From Octopus vulgaris (taxonomy: Eukaryota), in contig OX597823.1 in NCBI GenBank assembly GCA_951406725.2, positions 20,336,001 through 20,400,000 on the forward strand: DNA of 64,000 nucleotides, in the 5' to 3' direction. How positions within the stretch are numbered: the first letter of the stretch is position 1; the number at the start of each line of letters is the position of its first letter. The notes under the pieces are model-generated. The model made no database searches, had not been told where the DNA came from, and worked only from the letters and a program-made list of their open reading frames with translations. Shown here in pieces: positions 6,218 to 61,465 of this stretch. The translations under genes were made by a program, and so were the position numbers.

Positions 6218-6812
6218 AGCGGCGAGTTGGCAGAAGCGTTAGCACGCCGGGCGAAATGCTTAGCAGTATTTCGTCTGCCGCTACGTTCTGAGTTCAAATT
6301 CCGCCGAGGTCGACTTTGCCTTTCATCCTTTCGGGGTCGATTAAATAAGTACCTTTTACGCACTGGTGTCGATGTAATCGACTTAATCCGTATGTCTGTC
6401 CTTGTTTGTTCCCTCTGTATTTAGCCCGTTGTGGGTAGTAAAGAAATAGGTATTTCGTCTGCCGCTACGTTCTGAGTTCAAATTCCGCCGAGTTCGACTT
6501 TGCCTTTCATCCTTTCGGGGTCGATTAAATAAGTACCAGTTGCGTACTGAGGTCAATATAATTGACTTAATACGTTTGTCTGTCCTTGTTTGTCCTTTCT
6601 GTGTTTAGCCCCTTGTGGGTAGTAAAGAAATAGGTATTTCGTCTGCCACTACGTACTGAGTTCAAATTCCGCCGAGGTCGACTTTGCCTTTTACCCTTTC
6701 GGGGTCGATTGAATAAGTACCAGTTGCATCCTGGGGTCTCAATCCACTTAATCCGTTTGTCTGTTCTTGTTTGTCCCCTCTATGTTTAGCCCCTTGTGGG
6801 CAATAAAGAAGT
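6218..6812 (+). mobile_element. SINE family A with three tandem ~183-bp body units
   Basis: Head, then GTATTTCGTCTGCC...GTAAAGAAATA repeated from about 6266, 6449 and 6633. Confidence 0.88.
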
Positions 6813-7974
6813 AAGTATTATGGAACTAATTATTGTAATTTACTGACTTGCAAAATAAGTACAAATCTTTTCTCTCGAGTAAAGTAATTTGCATAGACCA
6901 GGGCATCATTCTTTTCTATAGCTTAGTCAGAAGAGAAAGGACGCGTCTAAGATCATAAAAAGGAGAACTAAATCTCCTGGTGGTAAGGAAGAGATCTGAC
7001 ATGGATGCTTTCAATAGGATGGACTCTGTTAAAACCATCTAAGGACTAGATGTGGTTTTAAATCGGGAAATGGATAGATGCACTACCCAATCACTGGCAC
7101 AGTTTATGCAATGCTCCTCCTTTTTCGAACGCAATTGTGTATGATTTTAAAACAAAAAGAAAATAATAAATTTTTTAATGGACTCTGTTCTCGAATCATA
7201 CATTAGATGAAACTTGAGCCTCGGTTTCTCAATCCTAGTATTAAACCTTAATTCTCCCTCATCACATCACAACCAGCTGTCTCAGCCATTGAAGAAAGTA
7301 CAAATATAGTGTGAGACACCAAAAAAAGTTTTATGTTATCACTACGAACCGATGTTATGATAGATATTTCAATTCAAAGCATAACATTTTGTCTTGTCTT
7401 ACACAAATTTTGCTCTTAAACTTCATTTATTATTTTTGTTTTTACCCAAATCATTATTTACCGAAAGCCATTTTTCCCCCCACAAAAAGAAAAAAAAATC
7501 AAGCATGTTTATCAAAAAATAAACGCCATTTTTTCTTTCAACATTTGCTTCATTTCACAAGTCTTGTGTTGAAGTTTGATTGAAACAACATAAGTTACTT
7601 TCTTGGTATTTTTTTTCTTTTAATAGATGACTGAAAGCAAAAAAAAAAAGAAAAAAATGTCAATAATCTATCATCAAACAGTATAATGTTTATTTTCGAG
7701 AAAGTTACCATTAGTTTTGTATACTTTCGCTATTATTTTTAACGCCTCCTTTTGATGTTGGGTCTGCTAGGAAGTGAATAAGAATATATGTATTTCAGGA
7801 CTGCAAATAGATTGATGTTGAGCAAACACACTGAATGTTAAAAGCATCAGACAGTATCGTAAACGATTCTGGGTAAATATACCTAATATGACACACAGGC
7901 ATAGACGCTACGCACAGCGACAAAAGGATACATTAGGGAAGAGGGAAAATGGTACACTAGAGGTATATGGATAT

Positions 7975-9714: not shown

Positions 9715-9797
9715 TTTTCCTGATGAGAAAGCGGCATAATGTACTCCTTATTCCTTCGCAATTAGGAATATGCAGCCTTCGAAACATATGTCGAAAA
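9715..9797 (+). ncRNA. Type I hammerhead ribozyme motif, canonical core
   Basis: TTTTC-CTGATGA-GAAAGCGGCATA...TATGCAGCCTTC-GAAA-CATATG-TC-GAAAA: 5-bp stem I, long stem II, palindromic stem III, GUC site. Confidence 0.8.
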
Positions 9798-21969: not shown

Positions 21970-22682
21970 GGCGGCGAGCTGGCAGAAACGTTAGCAAACC
22001 GGGCGATATACTTAGCGGTATTTCGTCCGTTTTTACGTTCTGAGTTCAAATTTCGCCGAGGTCGATTTTGCTTTTCATCCTTTCAGGGTCGATAAATTAA
22101 GCACCAGTTACGCACTGGGGTCAATGTAATCGACTTAATCCCTTTGTCTGTCCTTATTTGTCCCCTCTGTGTTTAGCCCCCTGTGGGTAATAAAGAAATA
22201 AGAAACATTAGCAAGTTGGGCAAAATGTTTAACGGTATTTCATCTGTCTTTACGTTCTGAGTTCAAATTCCGCTGAGGTCGATTTTGCCTTTCATCCTTT
22301 CAGGGTCGATAAATTAAGCACCAGTTACACACCGGTGTCAATGTAATCGACTTAATACCTTTGTCTGTCCTTATTTGTACCCTTTATGTTTAGCCCCTTG
22401 TGGGTAATAAAAAAATAAGAAACATCAACAGCTGGTGCCCCAGCATGACCGTGGCCTTCGGGCTAAAACATTTTTAAAGATTTAAGGATTTAAGCTGGGC
22501 AAAATGCTTAATGGTATTTCATTTGTCTTTACGTTCTGAGTTCAAATTTTGCTGAGGTTGACTTTGCCTTTCATCCTTTCGGGGTCGATAAATTAAATAG
22601 AAGTTGCGTCCCGGGGTCGATTTAATCGACTGTCTCCCTCCCGCCAAATTTCGGGCCTTGTGCCTAGAGCAGAAAAAGATAT
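21970..22682 (+). mobile_element. SINE family A, multimeric (three body units plus a short foreign tail fragment)
   Basis: TTACGTTCTGAGTTCAAAT units near 22033, 22250 and 22529; GGTGCCCCAGCATGACC fragment at about 22434. Confidence 0.85.
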
Positions 22683-37912: not shown

Positions 37913-38033
37913 ATGTATATATATGTACATACATATATATATATTTGTTCCACGTCCTCGCGTTGTTGTGTTTTCTCTTTGTGTTTTCATGTTTGGATTA
38001 ACTTTATATATATATATATATAAATATATATAT

Positions 38034-41000
38034 CATCACAATCAAGGAACGGCCATAATAGGCCATTCACCCACTAGAAATAACAGCCAAAGCTTCAACC
38101 GCAAAATAACATTAATTCCGAAAACCAGGAGAAAATTAAAAAACATTTACCCTGTAATTTCTTATACGATGCACCGTTTCATCTACTGTTTAATGGTAAA
38201 CTAACCCGATTAAATTAAATCAAGCCAATCTTCCATAGGCCCTTAGATTCGTCAGTAAGAAATAGCCAGATCGGAACAGATATTTTCACGAGGCATTTCT
38301 GTCCCTGCCTCGCCAATATCTGACCTAAAATTTTCAAATCATCGCACTCGCGCCAAATTTATCGGCAGCAAATAAATATAAGCCGCCGATTCCATTACGG
38401 AATCAACCAGAAAATTCATAATTAATCAATATAGGGTGCCAAAAAAAATTTTGTAGAATTTTTTTGCCACCAGCGGCCTTGTGGGAAAAAATTAAATAGT
38501 CATAGACCATTTATAAGTTCAACATCACAATCAAGGAACGGCCATAATAGGCCATTCACCCACTAGAAATAACAGCCAAAGCTTCAACCGCAAAATAACA
38601 TTAATTCCGCAAACCAGGAGAAAATTAAAAAAATTTACCCTGTAATTTCTTATACGATGCACCGTTTCATCTACTGTTTAATGGTAAACTAACCCGATTA
38701 AATTAAATCAAGCCAATCTTCCATAGGCCCTTAGATTCTTCAGTAAGAAATAGCCAGATCGGAACAGATATTTTCACGAGGCATTTCTGTCCCTGCCTCG
38801 GCAATATCTGACCTAAAATTTTCAAATCATCGCACTCGCGCCAAATTTATCGGCAGCAAATAAATATAAGCCGCCGATTCCATTACGGAATCAACCAGAA
38901 AATTCATAATTAATCAATATAGGGTGGCAAAAAAAATTTTGTAGAATTTTTTTGCCACCAGCGGCCTAGTGGGAAAAAATTAAATAGTCATAGACCATTT
39001 ATAAGTTCAACATCACAATCAAAGAACGGCCATAATAGGCCATTCACCCACTAGAAATAACAGCCAAAGCTTCAACCGCAAAATAACATTAATTCCGCAA
39101 ACCAGGAGAAAATTAAAAAACATTTACCCTGTAATTTCTTATACGATGCACCGTTTCATCTACTGTTTAATGGTAAACTAACCCGATTAAATTAAATCAA
39201 GCCAATCTTCCATAGGCCCTTAGATTCTTCAGTAAGAAATAGCCAGATCGGAACAGATATTTTCACGAGGCATTTCTGTCCCTGCCTCGGCAATATCTGA
39301 CCTAAAATTTTCAAATCATCGCACTCGCGCCAAATTTATCGGCAGCAAATAAATATAAGCCGCCGATTCCATTACGGAATCAACCAGAAAATTCATAATT
39401 AATCAATATAGGGTGGCAAAAAAAATTTTGTAGAATTTTTTTGCCACCAGCGGCCTAGTGGGAAAAAATTAAATAGTCATAGACCATTTATAAGTTCAAC
39501 ATCACAATCAAGGAACGGCCATAATAGGCCATTCACCCACTAGAAATAACAGCCAAAGCTTCAACCGCAAAATAACATTAATTCCGCAAACCAGGAGAAA
39601 ATTAAAAAACATTTACCCTGTAATTTCTTATACGATGCACCGTTTCATCTACTGTTTAATGGTAAACTAACCCGATTAAATTAAATCAAGCCAATCTTCC
39701 ATAGGCCCTTAGATTCTTCAGTAAGAAATAGCCAGATCGGAACAGATATTTTCACGAGGCATTTCTGTCCCTGCCTCGGCAATATCTGACCTAAAATTTT
39801 CAAATCATCGCACTCGCGCCAAATTTATCGGCAGCAAATAAATATAAGCCGCCGATTCCATTACGGAATCAACCAGAAAATTCATAATTAATCAATATAG
39901 GGTGGCAAAAAAAATTTTGTAGAATTTTTTTGCCACCAGCGGCCTAGTGGGAAAAAATTAAATAGTCATAGACCATTTATAAGTTCAACATCACAATCAA
40001 GGAACGGCCATAATAGGCCATTCACCCACTAGAAATAACAGCCAAAGCTTCAACCGCAAAATAACATTAATTCCGCAAACCAGGAGAAAATTAAAAAACA
40101 TTTACCCTGTAATTTCTTATACGATGCACCGTTTCATCTACTGTTTAATGGTAAACTAACCCGATTAAATTAAATCAAGCCAATCTTCCATAGGCCCTTA
40201 GATTCTTCAGTAAGAAATAGCCAGATCGGAACAGATATTTTCACGAGGCATTTCTGTCCCTGCCTCGGCAATATCTGACCTAAAATTTTCAAATCATCGC
40301 ACTCGCGCCAAATTTATCGGCAGCAAATAAATATAAGCCGCCGATTCCATTACGGAATCAACCAGAAAATTCATAATTAATCAATATAGGGTGGCAAAAA
40401 AAATTTTGTAGAATTTTTTTACCACCAGCGGCCTAGTGGGAAAAAATTAAATAGTCATAGACCATTTATAAGTTCAACATCACAATCAAGGAACGGCCAT
40501 AATAGGCCATTCACCCACTAGAAATAACAGCCAAAGCTTCAACCGCAAAATAACATTAATTCCGCAAACCAGGAGAAAATTAAAAAACATTTACCCTGTA
40601 ATTTCTTATACGATGCACCGTTTCATCTACTGTTTAATGGTAAACTAACCCGATTAAATTAAATCAAGCCAATCTTCCATAGGCCCTTAGATTCTTCAGT
40701 AAGAAATAGCCAGATCGGAACAGATATTTTCACGAGGCATTTCTGTCCCTGCCTCGGCAATATCTGACCTAAAATTTTCAAATCTTCGCACTCGCGCCAA
40801 ATTTATCGGCAGCAAATAAATATAAGCCGCCGATTCCATTACGGAATCAACCAGAAAATTCATAATTAATCAATATAGGGTGGCAAAAAAAATTTTGTAG
40901 AATTTTTTTGCCACCAGCGGCCTAGTGGGAAAAAATTAAATAGTCATAGACCATTTATAAGTTCAACATCACAATCAAGGAACGGCCATAATAGGCCATT

Positions 41001-44000
41001 CACCCACTAGAAATAACAGCCAAAGCTTCAACCGCAAAATAACATTAATTCCGCAAACCAGGAGAAAATTAAAAAACATTTACCCTGTAATTTCTTATAC
41101 GATGCACCGTTTCATCTACTGTTTAATGGTAAACTAACCCGATTAAATTAAATCAAGCCAATCTTCCATAGGCCCTTAGATTCTTCAGTAAGAAATAGCC
41201 AGATCGGAACAGATATTTTCACGAGGCATTTCTGTCCCTGCCTCGGCAATATCTGACCTAAAATTTTCAAATCATCGCACTCGCGCCAAATTTATCGGTA
41301 GCAAATTAATATAAGCCGCCGATTCCATTACGGAATCAACCAGAAAATTCATAATTAATCAATATAGGGTGGCAAAAAAAATTTTGTAGAATTTTTTTGC
41401 CACCAGCGGCCTAGTGGGAAAAAATTAAATAGTCATAGACCATTTATAAGTTCAACATCACAATCAAGGAACGGCCATAATAGGCCATTCACCCACTAGA
41501 AATAACAGCCAAAGCTTCAACCGCAAAATAACATTAATTCCGCAAACCAGGAGAAAATTAAAAAACATTTACCCTGTAATTTCTTATACGATGCACCGTT
41601 TCATCTACTGTTTAATGGTAAACTAACCCGATTAAATTAAATCAAGCCAATCTTCCATAGGCCCTTAGATTCTTCAGTAAGAAATAGCCAGATCGGAACA
41701 GATATTTTCACGAGGCATTTCTGTCCCTGCCTCGGCAATATCTGACCTAAAATTTTCAAATCTTCGCACTCGCGCCAAATTTATCGGCAGCAAATAAATA
41801 TAAGCCGCCGATTCCATTACGGACTCAACCAGAAAATTCATAATTAATCAATATAGGGTGGCAAAAAAAATTTTGTAGAATTTTTTTGCCACCAGCGGCC
41901 TAGTGGGAAAAAATTAAATAGTCATAGACCATTTATAAGTTCAACATCACAATCAAGGAACGGCCATAATAGGCCATTCACCCACTAGAAATAACAGCCA
42001 AAGCTTCAACCGCAAAATAACATTAATTCCGCAAACCAGGAGAAAATTAAAAAACATTTACCCTGTAATTTCTTATACGATGCACCGTTTCATCTACTGT
42101 TTAATGGTAAACTAACCCGATTAAATTAAATCAAGCCAATCTTCCATAGGCCCTTAGATTCGTCAGTAAGAAATAGCCAGATCGGAACAGATATTTTCAC
42201 GAGGCATTTCTGTCCCTGCCTCGGCAATATCTGACCTAAAATTTTCAAATCATCGCACTCGCGCCAAATTTATCGGTAGCAAATTAATATAAGCCGCCGA
42301 TTCCATTACGGAATCAACCAGAAAATTCATAATTAATCAATATAGGGTGGCAAAAAAAATTTTGTAGAATTTTTTTGCCACCAGCGGCCTAGTGGGAAAA
42401 AATTAAATAGTCATAGACCATTTATAAGTTCAACATCACAATCAAGGAACGGCCATAATAGGCCATTCACCCACTAGAAATAACAGCCAAAGCTTCAACC
42501 GCAAAATAACATTAATTCCGCAAACCAGGAGAAAATTAAAAAACATTTACCCTGTAATTTCTTATACGATGCACCGTTTCATCTACTGTTTAATGGTAAA
42601 CTAACCCGATTAAATTAAATCAAGCCAATCTTCCATAGGCCCTTAGATTCTTCAGTAAGAAATAGCCAGATCGGAACAGATATTTTCACGAGGCATTTCT
42701 GTCCCTGCCTCGGCAATATCTGACCTAAAATTTTCAAATCTTCGCACTCGCGCCAAATTTATCGGCAGCAAATAAATATAAGCCGCCGATTCCATTACGG
42801 AATCAACCAGAAAATTCATAATTAATCAATATAGGGTGGCAAAAAAAATTTTGTAGAATTTTTTTGCCACCAGCGGCCTAGTGGGAAAAAATTAAATAGT
42901 CATAGACCATTTATAAGTTCAACATCACAATCAAGGAACGGCCATAATAGGCCATTCACCCACTAGAAATAACAGCCAAAGCTTCAACCGCAAAATAACA
43001 TTAATTCCGCAAACCAGGAGAAAATTAAAAAACATTTACCCTGTAATTTCTTATACGATGCACCGTTTCATCTACTGTTTAATGGTAAACTAACCCGATT
43101 AAATTAAATCAAGCCAATCTTCCATAGGCCCTTAGATTCTTCAGTAAGAAATAGCCAGATCGGAACAGATATTTTCACGAGGCATTTCTGTCCCTGCCTC
43201 GGCAATATCTGACCTAAAATTTTCAAATCATCGCACTCGCGCCAAATTTATCGGCAGCAAATAAATATAAGCCGCCGATTCCATTACGGAATCAACCAGA
43301 AAATTCATAATTAATCAATATAGGGTGGCAAAAAAAATTTTGTAGAATTTTTTTGCCACCAGCGGCCTAGTGGGAAAAAATTAAATAGTCATAGACCATT
43401 TATAAGTTCAACATCACAATCAAGGAACGGCCATAATAGGCCATTCACCCACTAGAAATAACAGCCAAAGCTTCAACCGCAAAATAACATTAATTCCGCA
43501 AACCAGGAGAAAATTAAAAAACATTTACCCTGTAATTTCTTATACGATGCACCGTTTCATCTACTGTTTAATGGTAAACTAACCCGATTAAATTAAATCA
43601 AGCCAATCTTCCATAGGCCCTTAGATTCTTCAGTAAGAAATAGCCAGATCGGAACAGATATTTTCACGAGGCATTTCTGTCCCTGCCTCGGCAATATCTG
43701 ACCTAAAATTTTCAAATCATCGCACTCGCGCCAAATTTATCGGCAGCAAATAAATATAAGCCGCCGATTCCATTACGGAATCAACCAGAAAATTCATAAT
43801 TAATCAATATAGGGTGGCAAAAAAAATTTTGTAGAATTTTTTTGCCACCAGCGGCCTAGTGGGAAAAAATTAAATAGTCATAGACCATTTATAAGTTCAA
43901 CATCACAATCAAGGAACGGCCATAATAGGCCATTCACCCACTAGAAATAACAGCCAAAGCTTCAACCGCAAAATAACATTAATTCCGCAAACCAGGAGAA

Positions 44001-45018
44001 AATTAAAAAACATTTACCCTGTAATTTCTTATACGATGCACCGTTTCATCTACTGTTTAATGGTAAACTAACCCGATTAAATTAAATCAAGCCAATCTTC
44101 CATAGGCCCTTAGATTCTTCAGTAAGAAATAGCCAGATCGGAACAGATATTTTCACGAGGCATTTCTGTCCCTGCCTCGGCAATATCTGACCTAAAATTT
44201 TCAAATCATCGCACTCGCGCCAAATTTATCGGCAGCAAATAAATATAAGCCGCCGATTCCATTACGGAATCAACCAGAAAATTCATAATTAATCAATATA
44301 GGGTGGCAAAAAAAATTTTGTAGAATTTTTTTGCCACCAGCGGCCTAGTGGGAAAAAATTAAATAGTCATAGACCATTTATAAGTTCAACATCACAATCA
44401 AGGAACGGCCATAATAGGCCATTCACCCACTAGAAATAACAGCCAAAGCTTCAACCGCAAAATAACATTAATTCCGCAAACCAGGAGAAAATTAAAAAAC
44501 ATTTACCCTGTAATTTCTTATACGATGCACCGTTTCATCTACTGTTTAATGGTAAACTAACCCGATTAAATTAAATCAAGCCAATCTTCCATAGGCCCTT
44601 AGATTCTTCAGTAAGAAATAGCCAGATCGGAACAGATATTTTCACGAGGCATTTCTGTCCCTGCCTCGGCAATATCTGACCTAAAATTTTCAAATCATCG
44701 CACTCGCGCCAAATTTATCGGCAGCAAATAAATATAAGCCGCCGATTCCATTACGGAATCAACCAGAAAATTCATAATTAATCAATATAGGGTGGCAAAA
44801 AAAATTTTGTAGAATTTTTTTGCCACCAGCGGCCTAGTGGGAAAAAATTAAATAGTCATAGACCATTTATAAGTTCAACATCACAATCAAGGAACGGCCA
44901 TAATAGGCCATTCACCCACTAGAAATAACAGCCAAAGCTTCAACCGCAAAATAACATTAATTCCGCAAACCAGGAGAAAATTAAAAAACATTTACCCTGT
45001 AATTTCTTATACGATGCA
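38034..45018 (-). repeat. Tandem array of a 489-bp hammerhead-containing unit (14 full copies + 140 bp); candidate non-LTR retrozyme/ribozyme satellite
   Basis: Unit starts at 38034, 38523, 39011, 39500, 39989, 40478, 40967, 41456, 41945, 42434, 42923, 43412, 43901, 44390 and 44879; copies differ at only a handful of sites; no internal ORF of 60 aa or more in the track. Confidence 0.97.
38157..38263 (-). ncRNA. Type I hammerhead ribozyme (copy 1 of 14; recurs every 489 bp)
   Basis: Minus strand ATTTCTTA-CTGA(C/A)GA-ATCTA...TAGAT-GAAA-CGGTGCATCG-TA-TAAGAAAT: 8-bp stem I, intact core, stem II base ATCTA/TAGAT, near-palindromic stem III; predicted cleavage after GUA, between 38165 and 38164. 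Confidence 0.9.
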
Positions 45019-46137
45019 GTGTTGTTATCGCGGTGTTTGACTCTACTTTCGAATATGCTGAAATAAATGTATGGCAGGAATATGATATTAAGAAATAAAG
45101 AAGAAAGAAGTTTTGTTTCTATAATGGAAAGGAAGAATAAACGAAGTAGCATCTGTTAGCTTTAGGCATAGATGTAAAAAGACATTTCACGTAACAATGA
45201 AATCGGAATTGCTTGCTCTCTTTAAACGCAATGTAATATAGAGGTATTCAGAAAGTCTCACTGCAGTAAGAATTTTATAGCAAAATAGTTTTATACGATG
45301 GTATAAGACTGCAAAAAGTATATGTTAGACTTTACAAGACTTAAAAAAAATACAACTTTATTAGAGGTGTTGAAAGTGTCATCCTTCATTTTCAATACAC
45401 AAGTTGACTCTTCTACAAGTTTTGAAATACGTCTTGGAGAGTCTAACTCTTCGAGAGTTTCGATGAAAAAAATTCCCTGCGGAGAGACTTTTTGAACACC
45501 CAGTCCTTCATAACCTTCTGAGGAATCGGTTCCCTTAATGAATTGATGGCAAACATTCAAAACTGTATCAAACAATACTTCATTCCACATACACCATAAT
45601 AACAGTTTCAAAGTTTCGCACAAGACCAAAAACTTCAGCGGTGGTGTTGGTGGTGGTATGTCGACAGCATCGACCCTTCTGCTCAACTGGTACTTTATTT
45701 TATCGTATTTTGTTAAGGCTATTTCTACAGATATTCTATAGAAATTATAGCCAGCACTGATCTTTGCGATAACGTTTCCTATCGAGATGACAGGTGGAGA
45801 AATAACCTTAACAGATTAATGTAATGAGCCCTGCTAATGCAGTGGAACGTGGTATCTTCTATATAAATTGCAATTTCTGTCTGACTGCTACCATTATATT
45901 GCCTAAACCAACGAACCAATATTCATAAAACTTTGCAAGGATATGACGCTAACATCCAGTTCATTAATAGGCCAATTTTATTTCAATAAAAGTCTATATT
46001 GTGCACGGCATCTGTCACCTGTGATGTTCTTTGTTTAAAGAACATAACCCAATGCTTGTATGCTTGTTTATATATTTGTATGTATGCATATATGTGTTAC
46101 TGTAAGTATGCATGCATGCATATATATATATATAAAT

Positions 46138-58149: not shown

Positions 58150-58640
58150 TTTCTTGTCTACTCTAGGCACAAGGCCCGAAATTTGGGGGGGAGAGGGTCA
58201 GTCGATTACATCGACTCCAGTATGCAAATGGTACTTAATTTATCGCCCCCGAAAGGATGAAAAGCAAATTTGACCTCGGCGGAATTTGAACTCAGAACAT
58301 AAAGACAAACAAAATACCTTTTTCTTTACTACTCACAAGGGGCTAAACACAGAGAGGACAAACAAGGACAGACAAACGGATTAAGTCGATTATATTGACC
58401 CCAGTGCGTAACTGGTACTTATTTAATTGACCCCGAAAGGATGAAAGTCAATGTCGACCTCGACGGAATTTGAACTCAGAATGTAACCGCAGGCGAAATA
58501 CCTATTTCTTTACTACCCACAAGGGGCTAAACACAGAGAGGACAAACAAAGACAGACAAACGGAATAAGTCGATTACATCAACCCCAGTGCGTAACTGGT
58601 ACTTAATTTATCGACTCCAAAAGGATTACAGGCAAAGTGG
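58150..58640 (-). mobile_element. SINE family A, multimeric, headless
   Basis: About 2.7 reverse-complement body units. Confidence 0.85.
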
Positions 58641-60312: not shown

Positions 60313-61018
60313 TTAACCGTTGTTGATATAAATTGATTCCGAGCATAGGTAAATGAGTAAAACAGTGAAGTTTGGTTGGAGATTCCGTGTACATCTCTCT
60401 GTGTGATCGCTTAAATATATTTGTCTATACCTTAGCATAGGAATCTGTTCCTTATGCAGTACCCGAGGGATATCCTCGTTTGACCTACATCCTGAACAGG
60501 TTATCACGTAAATTAAATTTTCGGATGCATAGGTAAAGCCAGACTCAATTATAAACTTCTGTCCTTCTTTGAAGTGGAATTCCAAGACCTCCTGTAGGTC
60601 GGGACATATTCCACAGATTGGACGCCGCACCTTTTAACTCTTGGTTCCATTGTTGTTGTGTATAATTTCACAACTGCCAGTATTCGTTTTAGTGTTTTAG
60701 GTTGTTTTTTTTTCCTTTTTATTTTTGATGAATCTGTGTGTTTGTAGAATGTAGTTTATCTTAAACTCCCTAGTGAGCACAGGTAAATTTTGGTTAATGG
60801 TGTTATATGCATTAATATTTCTAGGGCTGTGTGTTGAAATATAAAATAGAATTTTTAAATGAAGTAAAGAATTTTGTTTTGTTTCCCTGATTGTTTGAAT
60901 ATCTATTTTCTTGGCACGTTTAACCCCGTCATCTATTGGTGAAGGCGGGTAGTGTTTCGCGACTAGTGCGGTCTTAAGTTCAAGAAGTCGAAGGCCCCGG
61001 ATATTTGCATCAGATACT
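60313..61018 (-). pseudogene. Penelope-like element remnant: RT C-terminal/linker region and GIY-YIG endonuclease
   Basis: ORF 60313-60630 has CGICP...FTYASENLIYVITCSGC, the cysteine linker plus N-[LV]-IY motif of PLE GIY-YIG domains; upstream frames read HYPPSPID...KRAK. Confidence 0.75.
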
Positions 61019-61030
61019 AAAGAAAATGGT

Positions 61031-61103
61031 GGTTAAGTTGGTGCAATCGGTCAGCACACTTATCACGAAAATAAGAGAAGTGAGTTCGATTCCCACGCGA
61101 ACT
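61031..61103 (+). pseudogene. tRNA-like sequence (pseudogene or SINE head)
   Basis: D-arm TGGTGCAATCGGTCAGCAC, anticodon arm CTTAT-CACGAAA-ATAAG, T-arm GTGAG-TTCGATT-CCCAC; acceptor stem mismatched. Confidence 0.55.
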
Positions 61104-61465
61104 AATACCCATTTTTCCGTCGATGGCCTATGTACTCCAATATTATGCCGTTTTCTTTAGCCAAACACGGTGAACGCTTATAAGCTTTAAGAAACTAATT
61201 ATTATTTACAAAATTTTCACTCGTCATCGATTCCTAATTTAACATACACACAGGCACAAACACACACAGACACACAAATATATTCGGCGACCTTCTTTCA
61301 GTTTCCTTCTACCAAATCTACTCCCAAGGCTTCGGTCAATCTGAGGCTATATTAGAAACCATCTACGTCATTTCCCGGCTGTTAGGCCGAGAGTACAGAC
61401 CTGTAGTGAGCGCTCATCGGATTTTCATTTATGCGCAAGATTCTCGAACGCATTAATGAGAAACC

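Follow-up and report, generated by a model that had tools for sequence, protein, structure and literature searches.

A 64,000-nucleotide stretch of the Octopus vulgaris genome (assembly GCA_951406725.2, contig OX597823.1, positions 20,336,001 to 20,400,000 of the forward strand), referred to here as the window, contains a 7-kb tandem array of hammerhead ribozymes, and the question which this locus raises is how such an array came to be there, i.e., as a satellite amplified in place or instead as something inserted. An original prediction had treated the array as a satellite and candidate retrozyme locus. The hammerhead retrozyme is retained here and the isolated locus is not. That is, the array is one long insertion of a young family that is dispersed genome-wide, not a lone satellite, and its ends resemble those of the target-primed insertions of Penelope-like elements (PLEs). 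The explanation favored is that this is a retrozyme family, non-autonomous and without long terminal repeats (non-LTR), probably moved in trans by a PLE, most likely one of Neptune type. The value of the locus thus lies less in its 14 hammerheads than in the anatomy of the insertions, which supplies sequence-level evidence for PLE-driven mobilization.

Tandem Repeats Finder places the array at 38034-45018, with a period of 489 bp, 14.3 copies and 99% matches. Thirteen of the 14 full units are 489 bp long and one is 488 bp, followed by a 140-bp partial unit. Scanning both window strands with a type I descriptor finds 14 type I hammerheads in the array, every one on the minus strand, plus a single weaker match elsewhere (9720, plus strand). 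In order, each of the 14 has stem I (8 bp), CUGANGA, the stem II region (68 nt, its base 5 bp), GAAA, stem III (10 nt and palindromic) and UA. The claim of 14 intact minus-strand hammerheads thus holds as to sequence, self-cleavage being predicted. So too does the claim that N7 is the sole core position varying within the array, with C in copies 1 and 9 and A otherwise. That A is private to the window array, the majority letter at the other 39 loci compared (below) being C or G, such that across the family N7 takes C, G and A. Of the two motif searches which had been proposed, the descriptor succeeded, whereas Rfam returned no hammerhead match, either at gathering score or at E<=10, probably due to the very long stem II.

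The unit otherwise has what is expected of non-LTR retrozymes, i.e., tandem non-coding units, type I hammerheads, a GC content below 50%, a stable fold, and dispersed recent copies. Its GC content is 37%, its longest reading frame is 58 aa, and the frame by which an autonomous PLE would be recognized, reverse transcriptase (RT) plus GIY-YIG, is absent from it. The minimum free energy (MFE) of the monomer is -151.4 (z = -7.56), with none of 100 shuffles as stable. The retrozyme call is accordingly supported, based on tandem type I hammerheads, no frame above 58 aa, low GC, folding (z = -7.6), a conserved core, and young dispersed copies.

Dispersal is seen in the 623 exact matches of the hammerhead pattern in the genome (a minimum for its hammerheads), versus 0 for a reversed control, so the motif is not a matter of chance. 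From a genome search the best 40 of 1,347 candidates were scored, i.e., the window locus and 39 others retrieved for comparison, a sample which is biased toward loci that contain a full unit much like that of the window. Across these 40 loci, which lie on many contigs, full-length units are 97-99% identical, two partly deleted units excepted, and the window array is the longest. Sequences diverge by 0.78% inside an arm, by 0.67% between opposite arms of an insertion, and by 1.48% between loci. The family, in other words, is both dispersed and young.

It is the ends of these insertions which are most informative. Counting monomer positions from the first base after the cut, all 67 of the 3' ends at the 40 loci fall at 124-135 or 231-240, i.e., ~130 or ~236 nt after the cleavage site (sites 1 and 2, respectively), and a (TA)n or TA-rich repeat adjoins every one of them, while 5' ends are scattered. 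Exact end junctions number at least 396 at site 1 and at least 670 at site 2 genome-wide, these being lower bounds, versus 0 for controls. In sequencing runs X1, X9 and X15, loose contig ends likewise have TA at both of these sites. A target site duplication is unreadable since the target itself is (TA)n.

Insertions may be one-armed, as in the window, or instead may consist of two arms placed head to head, as at 27 of the 40 loci. In all 27 of the latter the pairing is mixed, that is, with one end of each type. An independent test, employing the complete end lists of contigs C1 and C2 (64 and 93 ends), found 19 outward-facing pairs within 10 kb, every one mixed, with no 130/130 or 236/236 (p about 1e-6). 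None of these pairs overlaps the 27 loci, for a combined 46/46. Inner junctions display a 1-4 nt overlap in 20 of the 27 two-armed loci, and both arms are longer than one unit in 13. At five, neither arm is contained in the other, with a margin of at least ~100 nt at three of these, and copying of a first cDNA by fold-back would thus not suffice to explain them. Both arms come from a common type of template: A single haplotype is nearly always common to all units of a locus, and rare variants are common to both arms in nine of 24 testable two-armed loci.

A tail at one end along with a head-to-head inverted copy is, by analogy, the signature of a PLE. I use ‘tail’ here for the 106 nt lying between the two end sites, following its use for PLEs, whose insertions can include an inverted copy that is 5'-truncated, along with a tail of 30-40 bp which often stands at just one end (PMC8557442, PMC3846280). 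That PLE tail has been shown to be the interval separating two internal start sites which lie downstream of the hammerhead, with AT-rich targets and with a protein dimer predicted (PMC11167929). Endonuclease-containing (EN+) PLEs of the Penelope/Poseidon, Neptune and Naiad types (PMC11167929, PMC4209133, PMC8557442, PMC3846280) thus resemble the window family in possessing a hammerhead that is followed by two internal starts, a one-end tail, a head-to-head inverted copy, and AT-rich or (TA)n targets. They differ in that the window family lacks an open reading frame and has a long hammerhead while the PLE hammerhead is minimal, and also in that one-of-each pairing is strict in the window family while the PLE papers call the tail optional.

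The favored explanation would proceed as follows. The hammerhead strand of arrays would be transcribed, probably by RNA polymerase (Pol) II or through read-through, but presumably not by Pol III, as the unit has neither an A nor a B box and has seven runs of at least four Ts on its sense strand. The hammerheads would cut the resulting multimers into 489-nt monomers, probably as double hammerheads formed via the palindromic stem III, and the monomers may then be ligated into circles, in both cases as for the known class. A PLE RT/GIY-YIG protein would nick both (TA)n strands and prime two cDNAs on the same kind of RNA, perhaps indeed on one RNA molecule, with starts where the ends are observed, ~130 nt and ~236 nt after the cleavage site. 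Each cDNA would extend 0.2 to several units, with the two then joined head to head, mostly via the short overlaps seen at inner junctions, or with a single arm kept. Some arrays, the window's included, would later have grown or mixed through DNA-level exchange.

Candidate proteins for such mobilization are present in the genome, i.e., frames combining RT and GIY-YIG with a CxxxxCxxC linker. That linker is attributed to the Neptune and Nematis clades (PMC8557442), and ‘Neptune-type’ as used here is a label resting upon this motif. PLE copies were located using the endonuclease fragment of the window and the N-terminus of the frame at locus L133. Among the best 150 of 4,417 candidate hits, counted by hand, 28 have an open 781-aa frame and ~20 a 784-785-aa frame. 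These intact frames share the (TA)n target of the retrozyme family, as (TA)n is seen at the end of eight of eight Neptune-type copies examined; the copy at L154 has two arms, of which just one carries a tail. The 3' regions of Neptune-type elements carry, in addition, hammerhead-like motifs with a palindromic stem III. The lone PLE match found in a flank of the 40 retrozyme loci, at L035, sits beyond a (TA)n tract.

Some further observations concern these PLEs themselves. Upstream of the RT frame, the 781-aa family has a long open frame (L151:1-850) which is charged at its start and later rich in Asn, His and Pro, and its full element may possess two frames. The window contains on its minus strand (60313-60633) a decayed PLE endonuclease-region fragment, for which there are 10,701 first-look candidates in the genome. 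Certain relatives of the PLE protein are labelled as belonging to bacterial symbionts of bivalves, though probably these are host DNA in those assemblies. Short matches between PLE and unit at the cleavage site were rejected as chance antisense matches to AT-rich ends.

A more direct connection may be provided by a sister family, family E (L133:5980-6760; L158-L163), with a unit of ~460 nt that is homologous to that of the window (z = 14.5) and with two ends ~83 nt apart. In two of six family E loci examined (L133, ~10 nt from that family's site 2, and L160/L163), E directly adjoins a Neptune-type copy that is 5'-truncated, with no (TA)n between the two, which suggests shared machinery. The sequence upstream of the L133 frame was considered as that PLE's own 5' repeat, which was rejected as intact copies have other upstream sequence; it would seem instead to be a family E insertion or fusion.

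Across the 40 loci (14 core positions, 150 segments), the core shows 2 changes in 2,100 sites versus 0.44% elsewhere (p = 0.01). One subfamily has stem II lengthened by a two-sided change. In contigs of other organisms, both halves of a stem II pair change are seen, as are a GC-to-AU change keeping the stem III palindrome and a C at H17, in each case with linkage on the same molecule not established. The stems I of the genome's other hammerhead families differ yet pair and their stems III are palindromic (reversed control 0). Stem III can form a duplex with that of a second copy at -17.5 kcal/mol, so the double hammerhead, i.e., a dimer such as has been described elsewhere (PMC7229834, PMC4209133), is predicted to be the likelier active form.

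The template step is where the closest rival departs, and it departs there alone. By this account, which is less likely than not but to be taken seriously, the same PLE machinery acts on an uncleaved linear multimer, circles being rare or of no relevance and the hammerhead being for the most part a PLE-type component retained by inheritance. In the PLE system of PMC11167929, unprocessed RNA is indeed the main substrate and ribozyme mutants insert normally; a linear multimer could, moreover, hand on variants that are common to non-adjacent units, as seen in some arrays (L037, L038 and that of the window). Predictions, too, make the active fold a minor state. Of the 67 5' ends, nine lie within -9 to +22 of the cut versus 4.2 expected, a weak excess (p = 0.025, post hoc) that would also suit linear RNA, but only one is within a few nt of the cut. 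Multi-unit arms, furthermore, exist in several haplotypes, each uniform per locus, as rolling-circle copying of a monomer predicts, and the core appears conserved. A circular template is, on balance, slightly preferred to a linear one.

Another mobilizer, whether a Naiad-type PLE or a long interspersed element (LINE) via twin priming, appears improbable. Naiads have a preference for (TA)n, produce tails as well as inverted copies, and are present in Octopus species (PMC8557442), but are reported to lack canonical hammerheads, whereas the Neptune-type 3' regions here have hammerhead-like motifs; both family E fusions, too, involve Neptune-type frames. The exact partner PLE was not found among the four families compared, a search which did not extend to Naiad and Poseidon-type PLEs. 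Twin priming by LINEs has a variable second start and usually leaves a 3' simple-repeat tail, and would not give two fixed internal starts. Very unlikely, and largely refuted as concerns dispersal, is a DNA-level satellite, spread by unequal exchange or by extrachromosomal DNA circles, whose hammerhead is vestigial. It cannot account for 3' ends being fixed at two sites in (TA)n, for 5' ends being variable, for the strictly mixed pairing among arms, or for free variation in the core being confined to N7. In its favor, none of the sequencing runs listed with the unit is on record as RNA; the four compared are contigs, three with a guessed RNA label, and their read depth is not used as evidence. 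DNA-level spread may nonetheless account for the length of the window array. There, one private variant is present in 14 of 14 units and another in 12, while other variants alternate, being common to units 6/8/10 and to 7/9, and the edge unit has five differences. This points to a single template, with local expansion or exchange at the DNA level afterward, and with the 14-copy length probably including such expansion.

A number of points weigh against the favored explanation, i.e., against trans-mobilization by a Neptune-type PLE of RNA that hammerheads have processed. The 3' regions of four Neptune-type families are unlike the unit (z -1.3 to 0.8), in a family search that is incomplete, and direct fusion to a PLE frame is seen at none of the 40 loci. 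Missing 3' homology lowers the likelihood of the unit being a derivative of a known pseudo-LTR (pLTR), though not of its having been moved by a PLE. The two family E fusions could be nested insertions with deletion. The 106-nt tail compares with 30-40 nt in described PLEs, and in vitro (PMC11167929) no strand difference in start site was seen and hammerhead cleavage was not needed. As to the ribozyme, the active fold of the monomer exceeds the MFE by 1.5 kcal/mol (-26.4 vs -27.9 kcal/mol), and stem I has a probability of only 0.01-0.07 in full-unit context, making the active fold a minor predicted state. The core test treats related copies as independent, distinct events being 2 in 14 sites vs 219 in 430, and stems are not significantly conserved within the family (p = 0.10). 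With Xenopus retrozymes, eight of nine dimers failed to cleave, one of nine elements cleaving (10.64898/2026.07.22.740005).

Retrozymes as a class are established (PMC7229834; PMC7761336), with PLEs named as their likely mobilizers, and this is a new family within that known class. The metazoan non-LTR retrozymes of coral, mussel and axolotl (PMC7229834) are like the unit in being tandem, non-coding, low in GC and stably folded, with type I hammerheads, and are like the family in their dispersed dimers to multimers and coexisting PLEs. They are ~170-400 nt long, however, versus 489 nt with a very long stem II, and their expression and circles have been demonstrated, whereas the window family is known here from DNA. 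The pair of fixed 3' ends, the targeting of (TA)n and the insertions with two arms belong to the latter, with no description of them found in the available parts of PMC7229834. Novelty had been suggested for cephalopods, and a literature search indeed found neither a cephalopod retrozyme nor such retrozyme insertion ends described, with most subscription papers, Dfam and Repbase outside that search.

Vertebrate retrozymes, of 51-972 bp, a range which includes 489 nt, have been argued to be PLE-derived based on co-occurrence plus Xenopus pLTR homology (bioRxiv 10.64898/2026.07.22.740005). The same PLE dependence is concluded there, but with no mollusc sampled and no insertion-end analysis in the text available; here the evidence is instead insertion anatomy, with no pLTR homolog found. 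Elements of Chlamys such as MRC1 (PMC8557442) also are non-autonomous PLE passengers forming multicopy head-to-tail insertions, but at the 3' end these are similar to their autonomous partners, and their clade is reported to lack canonical hammerheads.

The enzyme responsible for moving animal retrozymes, and the way in which PLEs produce tails and head-to-head copies, are, in the literature available, open questions. What the O. vulgaris genome offers toward them is a very young family, inserted hundreds of times, whose start sites are exact to the base, whose pairing rule is strict and whose target is (TA)n, along with dozens of candidate proteins that are intact. Reconstitution, as in PMC11167929, could ask whether a PLE protein primes on the RNA of a retrozyme, where and on which strand it does so, and with a circular or linear template. 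More speculatively, and possible rather than probable, at least five hammerhead retrozyme families could form a clan that rides Neptune-type PLE proteins by a dimer mechanism that is asymmetric. On a single circular RNA, two enzymes would prime both nicked (TA)n strands at two fixed sites ~100 nt apart, with both then rolling round the circle. If true, PLE tails, head-to-head copies and retrozyme arrays would be explained in one step.

Table 1. Features of the array and its insertion ends, in window coordinates; monomer positions run in the RNA sense
Feature	Position	Strand	Basis
Array of 14.3 x 489-bp retrozyme units, one-armed insertion	38034..45018	-	Tandem Repeats Finder, descriptor scan, end analysis
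Type I hammerhead, copy 1	38157..38263	-	Descriptor scan, folding
Copy 1 stem I	38263-38256 with 38164-38157	-	Descriptor scan
Copy 1 core; stem II region; GAAA	38255-38249; 38248-38181; 38180-38177	-	Descriptor scan
Copy 1 palindromic stem III; predicted cut, after GUA	38176-38167; 38165/38164	-	Descriptor scan
H17 of the 14 hammerheads	38165, 38653, 39142, 39631, 40120, 40609, 41098, 41587, 42076, 42565, 43054, 43543, 44032, 44521	-	Descriptor scan
Insertion 3' end in RNA sense, monomer position 130-131; putative reverse-transcription start site 1	38034..38035	-	
(TA)n microsatellite target adjoining insertion 3' end	38005..38033	no strand	
106-nt ‘tail’, monomer 131-236, once per unit, between the two putative start sites	38417..38522	-	
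Putative start site 2, monomer position 236; serves as 3' end at other loci			
17-nt motif, monomer 74-90, common to other (TA)n-ending hammerhead families of the genome	38075..38091	-	
5' junction: array begins 9 nt before cleavage position, within stem III, adjoining non-TA DNA	45010..45018	-	

The 17-nt motif, a candidate protein-binding site, when followed by TA gives 1,042 forward matches with all families taken together. Family B (L066:6260-8760, G000:C20; L141-L149) has a ~557-bp tandem hammerhead unit, 3' ends ~100 nt apart, and the motif, and at L066 forms a two-armed array within the same (TA)n tract. Family C (L131, L135, L137, L138, L140) and family D (L132, L134, L136, L139, L060:9440-9900) are older, likewise end in (TA)n and carry the motif, with clear hammerheads in C and a less clear one in D. 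All three have only short motifs in common with the unit (z 1.2-1.6). A five-family alignment was out of register and is left unused, and a same-strand PLE frame was found upstream in 0 of 19 other-family loci with the motif. A weak hammerhead-like motif with palindromic stem III, seen twice (window 9720-9792, plus strand, and L089:6698), probably represents a further dispersed family.

The remaining features of the window are minor. Considered as a host gene, the 174-aa frame (45291-45815) matched nothing in Pfam or among proteins; it overlaps a dispersed ~265-bp repeat (45235-45505; ~80% identity, 2,444 candidates). A short piece of another repeat, at ~37944-38004, ends in the array's (TA)n tract from the other side, and is found also beside L064, L075 and L078. 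On the plus strand, 61036-61104 is a tRNA-like Rfam match (32.5 bits) with a poor acceptor stem, possibly the head of a short interspersed element. Lastly, a common interspersed repeat forms short tandems, with 2-3 copies of 184-217 bp, at 6266-6819, 21984-22425 and 58200-58638.

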